Source of the DNA: Bacillales bacterium | Lineage (GTDB): Bacteria; Bacillota_I; Bacilli_A; RF39; UBA660 | DNA length: 64,000 nucleotides | Direction of reading: 5' to 3' | NCBI GenBank assembly: GCA_016282375.1 | Contig: JAEEKI010000016.1 | Coordinates: 39,219 to 103,218 of the forward strand | Part shown: positions 10,883 to 62,172 of the stretch, in pieces | How the letters are laid out: each line of letters starts with the position of its first letter | Position numbering within the stretch: position 1 is the stretch's first letter | Notes under the pieces: model-generated | What the model saw: the letters and a program-made list of their open reading frames with translations, nothing else | Database searches by the model: none | What the model was told of the DNA's origin: nothing | Translations under genes and position numbers: made by a program

Positions 10883-11054
10883 CGTATTCCTCCTTAATAT
10901 AAGTATAACATGATAATACTAATTTGTTAAGTTATTTACATGTAAATATAGTTACTATTTTACAAAAATAGCACCTCAAAATATAACTATGGTGTTTTCT
11001 ATATGTACTACAATACATAATAAGTACTCCCTATATTCTAAAATCATTATAACA

Positions 11055-11081
11055 TAAAAAAAGCAAGAACAATATCTTGCC
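11055..11081 (-). terminator. intrinsic terminator after pheT
   Basis: GCAAGA/TCTTGC stem followed by a T-run on the minus strand. Confidence 0.55.
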
Positions 11082-11091
11082 TTTAACTATT

Positions 11092-13512
11092 TTACTCTAA
11101 ACGAAGTTCTGCTCCACATTTTTTATTTAAAACATTTAAGATATCTGTCATTTTTTCATTAATTTGTTCAGCATTCATGGATACATCTTCATTGATAAAT
11201 CTTACCTTTAAAGTAAGTGATTTTTTACCTTCAGGAATATGATTGCCATAGTATTCATCGACAAATTCAACTTCATATGCTAAATTCTTAATACTTTTGT
11301 AAATATCTTCCCATTTAGTATCTGTATTAATAATAATCGATAAATCTTTTTCAATAAGAGGAAGTTCAGGAAGTTTTTTATACTTATTAGTTCTTGATGC
11401 AAACGAAGTAAACTTACTGGCATCAATTTCCATTAGAGCAACATTTGTTCTTTTGATCTTGGTTTGGGACATAACTCTTGTTGATAATAATCCCAAATTA
11501 CCAATTACTTCCCCATCTTTTGTGATATTTAAATAAGCATTAATATCAGCCCAAGATGGTTTTTCTTTTTGTTCTAACCGGATATTATCCATATGGGTAT
11601 AAGTAGCCATTTGTTCAATAACACCTTTTAGTTCATAAAAGATTTTCTTTGCATCTTTGCCTGTAATAGAGGCTACTAAACTCTTAGTCTGAATTGGCAA
11701 TACTTCATCTTCGCTCGAAGGACTATATGCTCCTTTTTGATATACTTCATCATATTCAAACATTTTAAATTCATCATAATAACGAAGATTTTTAGAAATA
11801 GCTTCAATCATACCTGGAATTAAAGATGCTTTCAAATTTTTTAGTTCAGGTGCCGGCGGTGTAGCTAGTTTTACACAATTATCTTTATTAATACCTACAG
11901 CATCAAGATATTTTTCCTCAATCCAAGGATAAGTAAAGATTTCATAAAAACCACATCTAAAAGCTAAGTACTCTTTAATTCTTCTTTCTAAAAGATAATC
12001 ATTTTGCTTAATTGAGTGATCAAGATTAATTGTTAATGGTTTTCTTTCAAAACTATCAAAACTTAATATTCTTGCAATATCTCCCATTACATCGTCTTTG
12101 ATAGTTACATCACCTGTAGAACGATATGTTGGTACTGTTACTTCATAAATACCTTTACTATATTTAACTTCATAACCAAGATATGTTAATAGTTCTTTTA
12201 CTGTTTTAGAATCAATTTCTTTACCTAATCTTTCAGTTAACCAACTTTCAGATACTTCGATAATATTCTTTTCTGTTGGATGTAAATAGACATCATTGTA
12301 TTTAATAATTTTACTATCTGGGAATATTTCTTTTATTAAAGATAATGATAAATTAATTCCCTCATCTACTCTTTGCGTATCAAGACCTTTTTCAAAACGA
12401 ATAGCGGAATCCGTTTTTTCAGCAAAACGTTTGTCAGTCTTACGAATAGTACCAGCATCAAAATTAGCAACTTCTAAAACAATACCAGTTGTATCTGGTA
12501 AGATAGAATCATCTTTACCACCACGAATACCTGCTAAACACATTGGCTTTTTAGCATCACAAATAACTAAATCATCTTTTGTTAGTGTAATAGTATTATC
12601 ATCAAGTAATAATAATTCTTCGCCTTCTTTGGCATTACGAACAACAATCTTTTCATCAATTACATGCGTTTTATCAAAGGCATGTAATGGTTGACCAGTA
12701 ACTAACATAACATAATTTGTTATATCAACAATAGCATTAATTGGCCGCATACCACCTTTTACTAAAGTAGATTGCATCCAAATTGGTGATGATATATCTT
12801 TAATACCATCTATTTCAGCAGCTATATATCTATGACATTTATCTTCATCTTGAATAGTTACATCATACTTAGGTAAACTACTATCTACTTCATAAGTATC
12901 TAATGGTTTTAATGGTACTCGATAAATAGTGGATAATTCTCTAGCCAAGCCATAATAACCCCATAAATCTGGACGATTAGATAAAGACTTATTATCAATT
13001 TCTAAAACCGTATCATTTAAATCCATAACATCAGCAATGTTATCACCAGGATTGCAATCTATACCTTTTAAATCAATAATTTCGGTTTCACTTTGTGCAG
13101 GAAAGAAACTGTCTAAGAAGACCTCGGATGAAGCACAAATCATACCATAAGAATCTTCACCACGCATCTTTGTTTCTTTGATGGTAACAGGTTCCCCTTC
13201 CCCGTGCCATACTACTACAGCACCTGGTAAAGCTACGACAACTGACTCACCTTCATAAAGGTTAGATCCCCCACAGACAATTTGTACTGTTTTACTACCA
13301 ACATCAACTTTACAAATCCGTAATTTATCAGCATTTGGATGGGCTTTAACTTCTAAGATTTTACCAACACAAATATTTTGATATTTCTCGGCAAGATTTT
13401 CAACATTTTCAACTTCAACAGTTCGAAGTGTTAAATCATAAGCCATTTGTTTTTCATCAATATCTTTGGGAATATTAACATATTTTTTAATTAAATTTAA
13501 TGAAACTCTCAT
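11092..13512 (-). CDS. pheT: phenylalanine--tRNA ligase beta subunit
   Basis: 806 aa with an N-terminal tRNA-binding domain, B3/4 and B5 domains and a C-terminal FDX-ACB domain. Lies immediately downstream of pheS. Confidence 0.95.
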   Translation of the reverse strand: MRVSLNLIKKYVNIPKDIDEKQMAYDLTLRTVEVENVENLAEKYQNICVGKILEVKAHPNADKLRICKVDVGSKTVQIVCGGSNLYEGESVVVALPGAVVVWHGEGEPVTIKETKMRGEDSYGMICASSEVFLDSFFPAQSETEIIDLKGIDCNPGDNIADVMDLNDTVLEIDNKSLSNRPDLWGYYGLARELSTIYRVPLKPLDTYEVDSSLPKYDVTIQDEDKCHRYIAAEIDGIKDISSPIWMQSTLVKGGMRPINAIVDITNYVMLVTGQPLHAFDKTHVIDEKIVVRNAKEGEELLLLDDNTITLTKDDLVICDAKKPMCLAGIRGGKDDSILPDTTGIVLEVANFDAGTIRKTDKRFAEKTDSAIRFEKGLDTQRVDEGINLSLSLIKEIFPDSKIIKYNDVYLHPTEKNIIEVSESWLTERLGKEIDSKTVKELLTYLGYEVKYSKGIYEVTVPTYRSTGDVTIKDDVMGDIARILSFDSFERKPLTINLDHSIKQNDYLLERRIKEYLAFRCGFYEIFTYPWIEEKYLDAVGINKDNCVKLATPPAPELKNLKASLIPGMIEAISKNLRYYDEFKMFEYDEVYQKGAYSPSSEDEVLPIQTKSLVASITGKDAKKIFYELKGVIEQMATYTHMDNIRLEQKEKPSWADINAYLNITKDGEVIGNLGLLSTRVMSQTKIKRTNVALMEIDASKFTSFASRTNKYKKLPELPLIEKDLSIIINTDTKWEDIYKSIKNLAYEVEFVDEYYGNHIPEGKKSLTLKVRFINEDVSMNAEQINEKMTDILNVLNKKCGAELRLE

Positions 13513-14807: not shown

Positions 14808-14836
14808 ATTATAGTATTATTGCTAATTTTTGTCAA
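14808..14836 (-). promoter_or_regulatory. consensus sigma-A promoter of the pheST leader
   Basis: On the minus strand: TTGACA (14831-14836), exactly 17 nt, then TATAAT (14808-14813). Confidence 0.7.
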
Positions 14837-14873
14837 ACATGCCTTTTGAAATTATTTCGTGTTCCTACATTTC

Positions 14874-14902
14874 ATTCGGCACGCATTCGGCCTATTCGGC
14901 CT
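14874..14902. repeat. three closely spaced ATTCGGC repeats (the last two form a perfect 9-bp tandem, ATTCGGCCT x2)
   Basis: ATTCGGC occurs at 14874-14880, 14885-14891 and 14894-14900, inside a GC-rich patch between the family-A gene and the pheS -35 box. Confidence 0.7.
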
Positions 14903-14904
14903 TC

Positions 14905-14946
14905 AATTTTGCCTATCGGCAAAATTAGATTCAAGATATTAAGATG
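14905..14946 (-). repeat. conserved 42-nt 3' element with hairpin (copy A)
   Basis: Minus strand reads CATCTTAATATCTTGAATCT + AATTTTGCC-GATA-GGCAAAATT. At 59699-59740 it is identical apart from two positions in the hairpin: one stem position becomes a G-U pair and the loop is GACA instead of GATA. No U-tract follows this copy. Confidence 0.8.
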
Positions 14947-14975
14947 CCCGGAAGGCCCAAGACCCCCGAACACGA

Positions 14976-16109
14976 CTAACCTCCACCCCACGATCCACAA
15001 TAGGCATGACCAGAGGCATCAACTCCACAGCCTTCGTACATAGAGTCATCGCTACAGTTGACATAACCAAGGATGTTCACTCCACAGTTGAGGCCGCCCA
15101 CAGTGCAGCCAGCACCGTCGGCGCTAGCGGCAACGGTGCTTATATTGATCGTTATTCCAGCATCGATAAACGCTTGATATAGTGCTTGTTTGACACTTGC
15201 TTGTTGCTCTGATGTTAAAGTACTATTTAATGTATGTCCACTTAATCCGTATTGGGTATATGGTTGGGATAAACATATTTCATGTCCTTGTATTGTTGCA
15301 CATGCATAATATTTACTACTATCTTGGCCTATATATACGTTATGTCCTGTTGCACTTCCACTACTTTGTAGTGTTCCACCATAATTAGGAAAAGTACATG
15401 GGTTTGAATATGTACATGTCGTGGTATCAAACCAATAACTGGTTAGGCTTGATGGGCTTGCTGTTCCTGCTACACATGAGACATTTGCTACCCTAAACTT
15501 TCCTGCATATGTTTTTCCTGATAATGTACTTTGATCTGATGGCGTATTTACAAATGCACTTTCTAGATACCATACAGCTGTTTCAGTTGTACTGCCAATA
15601 CCAGATATTTTAGCACCGCTTACCACAACTGCACTATTCTGATTACCAACAATATCGGCTAGATCAGCTCCTGTTGAAATATAGTTATTACCTTCAGTTG
15701 CGGTTGTAGTACCAGATTCCAAATATGCTATGATACCTAATTCGATATTAGTCTCTCCCGTGGAATGGGTAGTGTATCGATCAGTACTTGTCCATTCATA
15801 AATAATATCATACGTACATACCATACTATAATCAGTGTTGGCTGTGAAATTAACCGTTAAGGTTGTGTTATTATATGCGGCAACATTTCCAATCTTTGCC
15901 TCTACCATATTAGCTGCTGTTATATTAAGAGACATATCGCCCCCGATAACGTCAAACACCATATTATTTCTCTCTGTTACTGTATTAGCATTTGCTACAT
16001 TCGTTATATTCATATTACCTGTTGCAAAGTATGCAAATGTTGCGCCAATTATTGTTACTAATAATGTTACGATAGCTATTATTAATAAGATTATATTATT
16101 CTTTTTCAT
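14976..16109 (-). CDS. secreted protein with SipW/TasA-type signal peptide and Cys-rich variable C-terminal module (family member A)
   Basis: The N-terminus MKKNNIILLIIAIVTLLVTIIGATFAYFATGN matches the SipW-cognate signal class (hydrophobic core then G-[AT]-[FY]-A-Y-F). It is paralogous to 59784-60917 and 61051-62172. It has its own promoter-like TATAAT, and a terminator lies upstream of it. Confidence 0.8.
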   Translation of the reverse strand: MKKNNIILLIIAIVTLLVTIIGATFAYFATGNMNITNVANANTVTERNNMVFDVIGGDMSLNITAANMVEAKIGNVAAYNNTTLTVNFTANTDYSMVCTYDIIYEWTSTDRYTTHSTGETNIELGIIAYLESGTTTATEGNNYISTGADLADIVGNQNSAVVVSGAKISGIGSTTETAVWYLESAFVNTPSDQSTLSGKTYAGKFRVANVSCVAGTASPSSLTSYWFDTTTCTYSNPCTFPNYGGTLQSSGSATGHNVYIGQDSSKYYACATIQGHEICLSQPYTQYGLSGHTLNSTLTSEQQASVKQALYQAFIDAGITINISTVAASADGAGCTVGGLNCGVNILGYVNCSDDSMYEGCGVDASGHAYCGSWGGG

Positions 16110-52852: not shown

Positions 52853-52929
52853 GCGCCCATAGCTCAACTGGATAGAGCGTTAGACTACGGATCTAAAGGT
52901 TGGGGGTTCGAATCCCTTTGGGCGTACCA
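52853..52929 (+). tRNA. tRNA-Arg (anticodon ACG)
   Basis: The cloverleaf was folded by hand. The acceptor stem is GCGCCCA/TGGGCGT (G1-U72 wobble), the anticodon loop is CTACGGA, the T-loop is TTCGAAT, and CCA is encoded. Confidence 0.88.
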
Positions 52930-53015: not shown

Positions 53016-53092
53016 CGAGAAGTAGCACAGCTTGGTAGTGCACCACGCTTGGGACGTGGGGGTCGCAGGTTCGAATCCTGTCTTCTCGACCA
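53016..53092 (+). tRNA. tRNA-Pro (anticodon TGG)
   Basis: Acceptor stem CGAGAAG/CTTCTCG, anticodon stem CCACG/CGTGG with loop CTTGGGA, T-loop TTCGAAT, and CCA encoded. A TGTATAAT extended -10 lies in the 86-nt spacer upstream. Confidence 0.9.
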
Positions 53093-59698: not shown

Positions 59699-59740
59699 AA
59701 TTTTGCCTGTCGACAAAATTAGATTCAAGATATTAAGATG
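59699..59740 (-). repeat. conserved 42-nt 3' element with hairpin (copy B); here it also looks like an intrinsic terminator
   Basis: Minus strand reads CATCTTAATATCTTGAATCT + AATTTTGTC-GACA-GGCAAAATT, then AGC and T8. Confidence 0.8.
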
Positions 59741-59783
59741 TTCAGAAGAATGCGAGGACGACCAGGCACCAATCTCAGTCACC

Positions 59784-60917
59784 CTACCATCCACAATAGG
59801 CATGACCAGAGGCATCTACCCCACAGCCCGCGTACGCAGAGTAATCGGTACAGTCGACAAAACCGTGGATGCTCACTTCACAGCTGAGGTCGCCCACACT
59901 GCAGCTAGCGTTGTCGTCGCGAGCGCCGCAATTATCTATATCGACTGTTATTCCGGCATCGATAAAGGCTTGATATATTGCCTCTAAGGCACTTGCTTGT
60001 TGTTCTGATGTTAAATTACTATTTAATGTATGTCCACTTAATCCATATTGGGTATATGGTTGACTTAAACATATTTCATGTCCTGTTATTGTTGCACATG
60101 CATAGTACTTACTACTATCTTGGCCTATATATACATTATGTCCAGTGTCTGTTCCACTACTTTGTAATGTTCCTCCGTAATTTGGATGTGTATATATAGG
60201 TTCATATTGTTCGGTATTATCATTCCATTCTGATAATGCAAACCAATATCCTGTTGGACCTGGTACTGGTACTGTTCCGGCTGTACATGACACATTAGCT
60301 ACTTTAAACCTACCACTATATGTTTTGCCTGATAAAGCACTTTGATCTTGGCTTACATTATAAAATTTACTTGATAGGGTCCATACGGCAGTACTCATGG
60401 TATTTCCCGTTCCATCGATTTGCGCTCCACTTACAACTGTTGCTGCATAATTTGTATATGTTAAACTTGAAAGGTCTGTTTCACTACTTATACTGTTTGT
60501 TCCTTGTGATACATGCGCATTATTTGCAAGTGTTCCTTGAATCGTAAATTCATTTGATGTTACTCCACTTGTATGTGCTGTATACTTATCACTTGAAGTC
60601 CATTCATAAATGATGTCATATGTACACACCATACTATAATCTGTATTGGCCGTGAAATTTACCGTTAGTGTCGTGGAATTATTGGCTGCTACTGTTCCAT
60701 TACTGGCTTGAACCATGTTGGCTGCCGTTATATTTAGACTCATTCCACCACCTATAGTATCAAAGACCATGTTATTTCGTTCTGTTATCGTATTAGCATT
60801 TGCTACATTGGTTATATTCATATTACCTGTTGAAAAATAAGCATATGTGGCTCCGATTACTAAGGCTAATAGCGTTGTTATGGCTATGGTTATTAAAATG
60901 ATATTATTCTTTTTCAT
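59784..60917 (-). CDS. secreted protein with SipW/TasA-type signal peptide and Cys-rich variable C-terminal module (family member B)
   Basis: MKKNNIILITIAITTLLALVIGATYAYFSTGN. The start is set at ATG 60917 after AGAGGT, rather than the track's TTG at 60947. The N-terminal two thirds resemble member C; the last third and the 3' UTR resemble member A. Confidence 0.8.
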   Translation of the reverse strand: MKKNNIILITIAITTLLALVIGATYAYFSTGNMNITNVANANTITERNNMVFDTIGGGMSLNITAANMVQASNGTVAANNSTTLTVNFTANTDYSMVCTYDIIYEWTSSDKYTAHTSGVTSNEFTIQGTLANNAHVSQGTNSISSETDLSSLTYTNYAATVVSGAQIDGTGNTMSTAVWTLSSKFYNVSQDQSALSGKTYSGRFKVANVSCTAGTVPVPGPTGYWFALSEWNDNTEQYEPIYTHPNYGGTLQSSGTDTGHNVYIGQDSSKYYACATITGHEICLSQPYTQYGLSGHTLNSNLTSEQQASALEAIYQAFIDAGITVDIDNCGARDDNASCSVGDLSCEVSIHGFVDCTDYSAYAGCGVDASGHAYCGW

Positions 60918-61050
60918 ACGAATACCTCTACTATAAAAAGTATACAATATATATTTCTTTTTTTAAATATAAAATCTAATTTCACTATTTATCAAAATTG
61001 GATTGCAATATTAATGTAACTCTTGGTGTAATTAATAAGATAAAATGCAA

Positions 61051-62172
61051 TTAATCATTATAACCGCTGTAAACATCGCCTTCGGGGGTAATGGCAACAC
61101 TTATCAAACCATTATCAACACAACCAACCCAGCCTCCTGCTGTAACATAGCATTGTTGACTATGATTGTTAAAATAGCACTTAACAGTGTCAGCGCCATA
61201 TCCGCAATCATTGATAGTAAGATTCATTCCCTCATTAATTAATGCTTCATAAAGAGCATTCTTCGCACTTGTTTGTTGAACACTTGTAAAATAACTATTA
61301 ATTGTATGTCCACTTAGCCCATATTGGGTATATGGTTGCGATAAACATACCTCATGACCATTACCATCGCTTGCACAGGCATAATACTTACTACTATCTT
61401 GACCAACGTAGACATCATGTCCTGTTGCACTTCCTGTTGTTTGTTGAACCCCTCCTACTGTTGGAAATGTATAATATGTTTCTATTGTCGATGGGTACCA
61501 ATAACTTGTTGGTCCTGATGCAGTTACAGTACCAGCGGTACATGAGACATTTGCCACCTTAAACTTTCCTGCATATGTTTTTCCTGACAACGCACTTTGA
61601 TCACCATCAACATTGTAAAATTTACTTGTTAGAGTCCATACCGCCGTACTCATTGTATTGCCTGTTCCATCTATTTGAGCACCTGATACAACCGTTGTAC
61701 TGTTGCTTGTATATGTAAATGTTGATAAATCTTTTTCACCATTAATACTATTTGTTCCTTTACTAACATGGGCATTTGAAGCTAGTGTTCCTTGAATCGT
61801 AAATTCATTTGATGATACTCCTGTTGAATGAGCCATATATTTATCTGATGATGTCCATTCATATACAATATCATACGTACATACCATACTATATTCGGTA
61901 TTAGCCGTGAAATTTACCGTTAGTGTTGTATTATTCTCCGCGGCGACATTTCCACTTAGACTCTCAGCCATATTCGCAGCTGTAATATTTAGTATCATTC
62001 CACCACCTAAGGTATCAAATACCATGTTGTTTCGTTCTGTTACCGTATTAGCATTAACAACATTTGTTATATTTAAATTACCTGTTGCAAAATATGCATA
62101 TGTTGCTCCGATTACTAAGGCTAATAATATTACTATAATAATTGTTATTAAAACAGCATTATTCTTTTTCAT
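61051..62172 (-). CDS. secreted protein with SipW/TasA-type signal peptide (family member C, AT-rich C-terminal module)
   Basis: MKKNNAVLITIIIVILLALVIGATYAYFATGN. The start is set at ATG 62172. It lies in tandem with member B, and the two share a near-identical 5' UTR. Confidence 0.8.
   Translation of the reverse strand: MKKNNAVLITIIIVILLALVIGATYAYFATGNLNITNVVNANTVTERNNMVFDTLGGGMILNITAANMAESLSGNVAAENNTTLTVNFTANTEYSMVCTYDIVYEWTSSDKYMAHSTGVSSNEFTIQGTLASNAHVSKGTNSINGEKDLSTFTYTSNSTTVVSGAQIDGTGNTMSTAVWTLTSKFYNVDGDQSALSGKTYAGKFKVANVSCTAGTVTASGPTSYWYPSTIETYYTFPTVGGVQQTTGSATGHDVYVGQDSSKYYACASDGNGHEVCLSQPYTQYGLSGHTINSYFTSVQQTSAKNALYEALINEGMNLTINDCGYGADTVKCYFNNHSQQCYVTAGGWVGCVDNGLISVAITPEGDVYSGYND

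Follow-up and report, generated by a model that had tools for sequence, protein, structure and literature searches.

The stretch of DNA analysed here (the window) comprises 64,000 nt of a Bacillales bacterium genome (GCA_016282375.1, contig JAEEKI010000016.1, positions 39,219–103,218 of the forward strand). It carries two paralogous genes on the minus strand, each specifying 377 aa and each ending in a candidate variable repeat (VR) of a diversity-generating retroelement (DGR), and these repeats are the subject of this study. Gene A (14976..16109) was delineated from the list of open reading frames (ORFs), its homologues and an AlphaFold2 (AF2) model, and gene B (59784..60917, counted from the ATG at 60917) from the ORF list and a protein alignment with A. 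The product of gene A begins with a hydrophobic signal or anchor, followed by a beta-sandwich N-domain; the variable repeat forms the end of its C-terminal domain.

The repeats stand out by their composition. Over the entire window the G+C content is 28.9%, and in 150-nt intervals it has a mean of 0.289 (standard deviation 0.057); values of at least 48% occur only at loci A and B, where the maxima are 0.57 and 0.59. A GC-rich, adenine-poor block in gene A had been placed at 15021–15150 by an earlier reading of the sequence (the original prediction). The anomaly itself is real and its limits had to be moved: alignment to the template repeats (TRs) of two metagenome contigs, L001 and L050, sets the block from ~15133 to ~14950 on the minus strand, running past the stop codon (14976–14978), with 57% G+C and 14% A. 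The corresponding block of gene B spans 59931–59744 of the same strand, also extends beyond the stop, and has 57% G+C and 15% A. In both, the VR continues into a GC-rich post-stop segment, which in A resembles an initiation of mutagenic homing (IMH) sequence and in B is of another type. The rest of gene A has 36% G+C, and outside the VR the adenine content is 37–39% compared with 14–15% in the VR. The VR makes up the last ~52 codons of the gene plus the post-stop sequence; it has the 3′ location and the adenine-free scaffold codons of a DGR target site.

The two copies were compared over 34 codons of the minus strand (15027–15128 in A, 59823–59924 in B), and the hand counts of the original prediction were reproduced. 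Eighteen codons are identical and 16 differ, all 16 non-synonymously; the 21 nucleotide differences are distributed 6/12/3 over codon positions 1/2/3, and 15 of them have an A in one copy. These codons have 55.9% G+C and 18.6% A in copy A, and 58.8% and 17.6% in copy B, in keeping with the block described at the outset (56–59% G+C and 18–19% A against 28.9% G+C). The reported lack of silent differences holds within the 34 codons and fails directly 3′ of them, where there are two (GGA/GGG and GTT/GTA), both involving A. The Cys codons show zero differences, as had been stated, and the Val codons a single one, the silent GTT/GTA. Codons differing only synonymously and those differing non-synonymously stand at 2:16 in the repeat and at 12:10 in the 80 codons upstream. 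By the Nei–Gojobori method, synonymous (dS) and non-synonymous (dN) divergence are both 0.20 in the repeat (dN/dS ~1), and 0.33 and 0.087 in the 77 codons upstream (dN/dS 0.26).

Both repeats are followed by a conserved 40-nt element, TCTTAATATCTTGAATCTAATTTTGCC-NNNN-GGCAAAATT, located ~10 nt past the end of the template homology. It was found after every repeat of the family that was fetched except the degraded P0034, where the downstream element is truncated. The window holds exactly two matches, with 0 expected by chance: one after A (14905..14944, minus strand, TCTTAATATCTTGAATCTAATTTTGCC-GATA-GGCAAAATT), placed by match scan and family alignment, and one after B (59699..59738, minus strand), placed in the same way. 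When JGI and NCBI metagenome contigs were scanned for it, seven loci were returned, all of them 3′ ends of genes of the same family, the cysteine-ladder (Cys-ladder) family described below. The scan of viral contigs gave 0 matches, which fits a chromosomal, non-phage system.

The element is predicted to form a hairpin with a stem of 7–9 bp and a 4-nt loop. Hairpin A (14905–14926, minus strand), predicted as DNA and as RNA, has a 9-bp stem and the loop GATA; hairpin B (59699–59720, minus strand), recognised by alignment, has the loop GACA and one T:G position in its stem. The consensus GRNA is fitted by the loops of 10 of the 12 aligned family loci. The hairpins of DGR targets have a GRNA loop consensus and lie within a range of 4–34 bp (Guo 2011, PMC3240598), and those of A and B agree with this in having a 4-nt GRNA loop ~4–34 bp downstream of the VR. 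For the region 14850–14985, the folding z-score is −3.3 as DNA and −2.2 as RNA. Alignments reveal further short stems after copy A (GGCC-GAATA-GGCC and GTGCC...GGAAC, within 14858..14904, minus strand), which are common to several related loci and absent after copy B. At neither locus was any Rfam family, or a T-box leader, found at the gathering threshold. An ordinary intrinsic terminator was considered as an identity for the hairpin and rejected: the terminator scan does not call it, and in copy A no T-run follows it. Between the post-repeat element and pheS there is a promoter that matches the sigma-70 consensus perfectly (TTGACA, 17 nt, TATAAT; 14808–14836, minus strand).

The protein of gene A is a member of a small family that lacks annotation. 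A search returned 122 homologues, the majority of them from uncultured Bacilli in rumen and gut metagenomes, and none has a Pfam annotation over the architecture of gene A. Their C-termini follow the pattern C-x8-C-x6-C-x9-C-x8-C-x9-C, with conserved Cys, Val and Gly, and with highly variable positions at which Tyr, Ser, Gly, Asn and Asp are frequent. One homologue, P0029 (61% identical), is encoded on L001, a contig of 116.7 kb, in the gene order target, 127-aa MutS-like ORF, TR, bAvd (PF22296) and RVT_1 reverse transcriptase (RT), the last with IGDQTSQ and YMDD motifs. A 189-nt direct repeat is present at the 3′ end of the target gene (VR, 10993–11181) and as an intergenic copy (TR, 11728–11916). 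All 26 mismatches between the two fall on TR adenines, affecting 26 of 55, and comprise 20 A to G, five A to T and one A to C change. The L001 cassette is a canonical DGR.

Genes for bAvd and RT are present in L001 and also in L050–L054. The likeness of the small ORF to MutS is weak in L001 and clear in L054. In one RT homologue, P0177 (519 aa), the RT is joined in a single protein with MutS domain I (PF01624), which provides a functional link between the RT and the separate MutS-like accessory ORF. The 150–200 nt between TR and avd (L001 11917–12087, L050 ~740–955, L053 and L054) are conserved (...GATATTCCTTGTGGAAACACAAAA...TGTAGCAAATG...) and probably represent a structured spacer of the DGR RNA.

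Two further repeats, those of P0032 and P0049, come from the same sample as L001, on other contigs and with no cassette nearby. The P0032 repeat differs from the L001 TR at 25 positions, 24 of them adenines, and its GC-rich 3′ end matches fully; the P0049 repeat has 23 of 32 mismatches at adenines, the others lying mostly beyond the end of the homology, and its GC-rich 3′ end matches as far as GGTTGCC. Remote targets therefore exist in the Cys-ladder family, with one TR serving adjacent and remote copies. At the remote target of P0032, the ~40 nt beyond the repeat and hairpin are also common to the two contigs (L042 11230–11265 and L001 11236–11270, GTGTAGGCACGCTTAAAAATTGTTGAATAGGTGTG...), which suggests duplication of a larger target-site module. 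The GC-rich post-stop segment is identical to that of the TR in L001, L042 and L051.

A second template is identical across three samples (L050–L052, with RT P0122), and L051 and L052, which derive from different samples, overlap over 4001 nt. This overlap contains 42 mismatches, six at a contig end and 36 in the VR, and 35 of the latter are at TR adenines; the MutS-like ORF, template, Avd, RT and next gene are identical. Within the TR-homologous stretch, the VR departs from its TR at adenines in 28 of 28 cases in L051 and 26 of 27 in L052. The comparison is direct evidence of ongoing diversification of a Cys-ladder repeat in these relatives. Two other cassettes, L053 and L054, have Cys-ladder templates of their own.

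Repeats A and B of the window were aligned to the TR of L001, which is heterologous to the window. Of 23 differences between A and B, 17 fall on template adenines (Fisher p = 8.6e-6), and of the 92 template sites that are not adenine, each copy matches 82.

In a DGR, an RNA containing the TR is copied by the RT together with Avd, the template adenines being copied unfaithfully. With the GC-rich 3′ homology of VR and TR and a nearby hairpin as guides, the resulting cDNA takes the place of the 3′-terminal VR of the target gene. In the source genome, a TR-containing RNA would likewise be copied by RT and Avd with errors at adenines, and the cDNA would replace repeats A and B. The RT, Avd and TR would be encoded outside the 64 kb, and their absence from it would make A and B remote targets. 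Mutagenesis aimed at adenines would leave the adenine-free Cys, Val and Gly scaffold codons constant, and GC-rich in an AT-rich genome, and would place the differences at template-adenine positions, nearly all of them changing the amino acid; homology of VR and TR through the 3′ end would carry the signature past the stop codon. We consider it very probable that the block at 14950–15133 is the VR of a DGR and that at 59744–59931 a second VR of the same family. The reading draws its support from the cassettes of relatives rather than from the source genome. The adenine-directed target on a Cys-ladder domain that had been proposed from the window is supported by the adenine mismatches of those cassettes, by the 17 of 23 differences on TR adenines and by the hairpin element. 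We infer that the cognate TR and RT are still present in the source genome.

Several observations weigh against this interpretation. Six of the 23 differences lie off the adenines of the heterologous L001 template, and a stretch of 28 nt common to A and B (14993–15020) contains five adenines that are unchanged in both. Following the sequence TGTGGAT, A and B diverge over ~48 nt after the stop codon in a manner that is not adenine-linked, so no single TR could match the two copies all the way to the 3′ end; the genome should then hold two templates, unless just one of the copies is still being serviced. The repeat ends in GTCGTGTTCGGGGGTCTTGGGCCTTCC in A and in GGTGCCTGGTCGTCCTCGCATTCTTC in B. 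The post-stop 3′ type of B recurs in the metagenome contigs L002, L043 and L048, and the segment of A resembles the L050-type template near the stop codon. Both copies have a GC-rich post-stop segment that may represent an IMH; the two segments differ, and the window holds no TR with which to compare them. Copy A also lacks the first ladder cysteine: its repeat encodes five of the usual six of the family, and a +2/−2 indel pair at 15126–15140, where the VR begins, shifts the reading frame and then restores it, leaving the first Cys codon out of frame. The DNA motif TTGC, with which the repeat starts, is retained in copy A and translated out of frame as Val-Ala.

Searches for the machinery point in the same direction. 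A search of the window for a third copy of the VR scaffold or of the shared 28-mer, at up to three mismatches, returned only A and B, and no TR. No RT was detected in it by scanning for the motifs YxDD and GxxxSQ or by tblastn with the RT of L001, and tblastn with the L001 proteins gave neither an Avd nor a MutS-like ORF, all of which upholds the earlier statement that the window lacks a reverse transcriptase and a template repeat. A scan of metagenome contigs with a 54-nt VR/TR scaffold pattern gave 0 matches, a result that says little because the copies of the window were absent there too. A scan of genome contigs with GATNCCTCTGGTCNTGCCNNNTGTG also gave 0 matches and is uninformative on the existence of a TR, since the window's own copies were again missing from the contigs scanned.

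A third paralogue, C (61051..62172, minus strand), is an apparent decayed former target, judged by its composition, Cys loss and element remnant. It had been described as a copy with normal AT-rich codons and the same Cys spacing, a description that needs correcting: its last 150 nt have 42% G+C and the last two cysteines are lost. Downstream, a remnant of the element retains 22 of 40 bases (60978–61017) and forms no hairpin. Paralogue C serves as a natural control, having no hairpin and a C-terminus that has drifted to 42% G+C. Elsewhere in the window, two tRNA genes with identical scores are found at 52853–52926 and 53016–53089, the two being 163 nt apart.

Paralogue C bears on the main alternative, namely that A and B are relics, written by an ancestral DGR whose RT or TR, or the cognate template of one copy, has since been lost, so that both are now ordinary genes. 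This is possible, and several of the features listed above can be read in its favour: no DGR component lies within the 64 kb, the post-stop segments of A and B differ, and the first Cys of A was lost through the frameshift pair. Decay does occur in the family, as seen in paralogue C and in P0034 with its truncated downstream element. However, both copies keep 57% G+C and 14–15% A, compared with 42% G+C in the decayed C, and both have an intact element with a GRNA-loop hairpin as well as intact reading frames. The dS of 0.20 in the VR is also not above the 0.33 of its flank. Having remote targets is no anomaly either, as they are shown in relatives and documented for non-phage DGRs (PMC5758913). 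Taking a DGR origin as given, the repeats are probably still active.

Gene conversion offers a different explanation, in which the 3′ module was made uniform by exchange of A with B or with a third paralogue as donor, and the adenine pattern arises by chance from codon usage. The two genes are indeed mosaic, with dS above 1 over residues 1–245, 0.33 over residues 246–322 and 0.20 in the VR, showing that some exchange of the C-terminal module took place. The low value at residues 246–322, upstream of the span covered by the TR, suggests that this module was recently exchanged or converted independently of retrohoming. However, conversion erases differences and would not concentrate 18 non-synonymous ones in 44 codons at template-adenine positions, and it leaves both the composition and the hairpin element unexplained; as an account of the repeats it is very unlikely. 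Ordinary paralogue divergence, with diversifying selection on a horizontally acquired GC-rich patch and no retroelement, is strongly disfavoured: it gains something from the fact that just two copies can be compared in the window, that A/G transitions dominate and that dN/dS is ~1 and not far above it, but in relatives this block is paired with a cognate TR from which it departs at adenines only, the differences in the window coincide with those TR adenines, and protein selection explains neither the GC-rich signature after the stop codon nor a non-coding hairpin element.

With A and B taken as targets of a DGR, the question arises of what kind of protein is being varied. Across the family, column entropy is 3.0–3.7 bits at positions corresponding to AAC codons of the TR, and ~0–1.4 bits at most of the Cys, Val and Gly scaffold columns. 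The full-length AF2 model of gene A has a predicted local distance difference test score (pLDDT) of 79.8, and that of the C-terminal 165 residues (213–377), made with 83 sequences, reaches a pLDDT of 94.1 and a predicted template modelling score (pTM) of 0.89. The latter consists of four strands and two helices, followed by six short strands that are encoded by the repeat. The VR domain is thereby confidently modelled as three Cys-flanked beta-hairpins of ~50 residues in total. Each strand pair is flanked by two cysteines spaced 9–10 residues apart in the sequence, a spacing consistent with disulfide staples; the predicted Cys pairs are 326–335 (missing in A), 342–352 and 361–371. The protein is probably secreted or located at the surface, displaying some 20 hypervariable residues on the three hairpins, presumably for ligand binding.

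The modelled domain has no evident counterpart among known structures. A Foldseek search of the C-terminal model against PDB gave a best E of 0.23, with template modelling (TM) scores of no more than 0.26, and among the top 50 PDB matches listed there was no chain of Mtd, TvpA, FGE or any other lectin. Against BFVD the best E was 0.037, with nothing significant, and the same search with the full-length model also gave nothing significant; Pfam has no match for the gene A protein or for its C-terminal domain. The model therefore agrees with the original prediction that this is not a recognised fold of DGR variable proteins. On the model, the VR does not appear to adopt a C-type lectin fold, although it may be a very derived variant of one.

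The N-terminal half of the protein gives other leads. Its motif ...GAT(F/Y)AYF... presumably reflects a resemblance to SipW-type signal proteins, and gene A had been labelled as encoding a SipW signal. This label receives no support from NCBIfam, and the models for SipW, TasA and camelysin-type signals gave no NCBIfam or Pfam match at E ≤ 0.1. A profile of the family searched against PDB sequences matched weakly (E = 0.035) the thread subunit Saci_0406 of Sulfolobus acidocaldarius (7PNB_A), over the signal and N-domain (residues 1–130 of gene A). This lead, which is below significance, raises the possibility of an N-domain that acts as a TasA- or thread-like fibre subunit.

The N-domain also occurs with a different partner. 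Paralogues P0076–P0092 have the same N-terminal signal and beta-sandwich domain, joined to a C-terminus like DUF6273 or DUF1566. The C-terminal sequence ...WT.SP...VRPVLYLKA of these paralogues is one that we take to resemble a classical lectin-type VR. Homology between the Cys-ladder module and this lectin-like module was considered and rejected (hhalign probability 0.3%). Three loci of such paralogues, in metagenome-assembled genomes of Hadza gut Bacilli, contain pairs of direct repeats of 120–133 nt and an RT homologue next to the gene: L019 (11473–11598 and 12472–12597, with two small ORFs upstream of the RT), L033 (10644–10776 and 11757–11889) and L036 (11647–11766 and 12742–12861). Because the N-domain is shared by the Cys-ladder and the lectin-like paralogues, it is seemingly a common chassis for two different variable modules.

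Published VR classes comprise CLec1–3 and Ig1–2, with UVR1–6 described only for bacteria of the candidate phyla radiation (CPR), and the Cys-ladder VR falls outside CLec1–3 and Ig1–2. Annotated VR regions were found to be 'systematically' C-Lec (Roux et al. 2021, PMC8144416), and in a 2024 survey (PMC11661182) non-lectin cases are merely suggested, from domain annotation. No description of a Cys-ladder DGR family was found in an incomplete search of the literature, and the large target catalogues may contain it unnamed. So far, nearly all DGR hypervariation has been linked to the C-type lectin fold. We regard as evenly balanced the broader proposal that DGRs of uncultured rumen and gut Bacilli vary a non-lectin ladder of three Cys-flanked, probably disulfide-stapled, hairpins on a secreted and possibly fibre-forming protein, that this solution is independent of the lectin fold, and that adjacent and remote VRs are both marked by the 40-nt element. 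Confirmation of the fold would widen the range of architectures known to tolerate ~20 randomised positions, and binder libraries could then be built on the ladder as a very small natural scaffold. For annotation, the 40-nt post-VR element is a simple marker of DGR targets in Bacilli of this kind, including remote targets that are missed by RT-centred searches, and an odd compositional island of the window becomes an explained feature.

The best-known system for comparison is the DGR of Bordetella phage BPP-1 (mtd VR, avd, TR and brt). As in BPP-1, the target gene has its VR at the 3′ end, the cassettes of relatives show adenine-specific VR/TR mismatches, a GC-rich 3′ end common to VR and TR, Avd and a DGR-type RT, and a hairpin with a 4-nt GRNA loop follows shortly downstream (PMC3240598). 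Unlike BPP-1, the element here is chromosomal and not phage-borne, the window holds the VRs alone, and the order in relatives is target, MutS-like ORF, TR, avd and RT. The stem also differs from those of BPP-1 and other phage hairpins in being AT-rich (AATTTTGCC) instead of GC-rich and in lying inside a 40-nt sequence-conserved element, and by Foldseek the variable domain does not appear to be a C-type lectin fold.

The DGRs of Treponema denticola (TvpA) and Legionella (LdtA) are similar in other respects: one TR serves several scattered targets, a small MutS-like ORF accompanies Avd, and the targets are secreted or surface proteins. Both the MSL accessory gene class and the remote targets of non-phage DGRs have been described (Wu et al. 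2018, PMC5758913). The variable domains of TvpA and LdtA are C-type lectins of the FGE or DUF1566 type, whereas here they are modelled as three Cys-flanked hairpins. With TasA/camelysin and the archaeal thread subunits, the likeness is confined to the N-terminal motif and the weak match to 7PNB_A, with no match in NCBIfam or Pfam. The lectin-like paralogues P0076–P0092 share the N-domain and have an unrelated C-terminal variable module. Set beside these systems, the mechanism, the remote targets, the MSL accessory and the target hairpin belong to established DGR biology (PMC3240598, PMC5758913), and the novelty lies in the predicted non-lectin variable scaffold together with the conserved target element.

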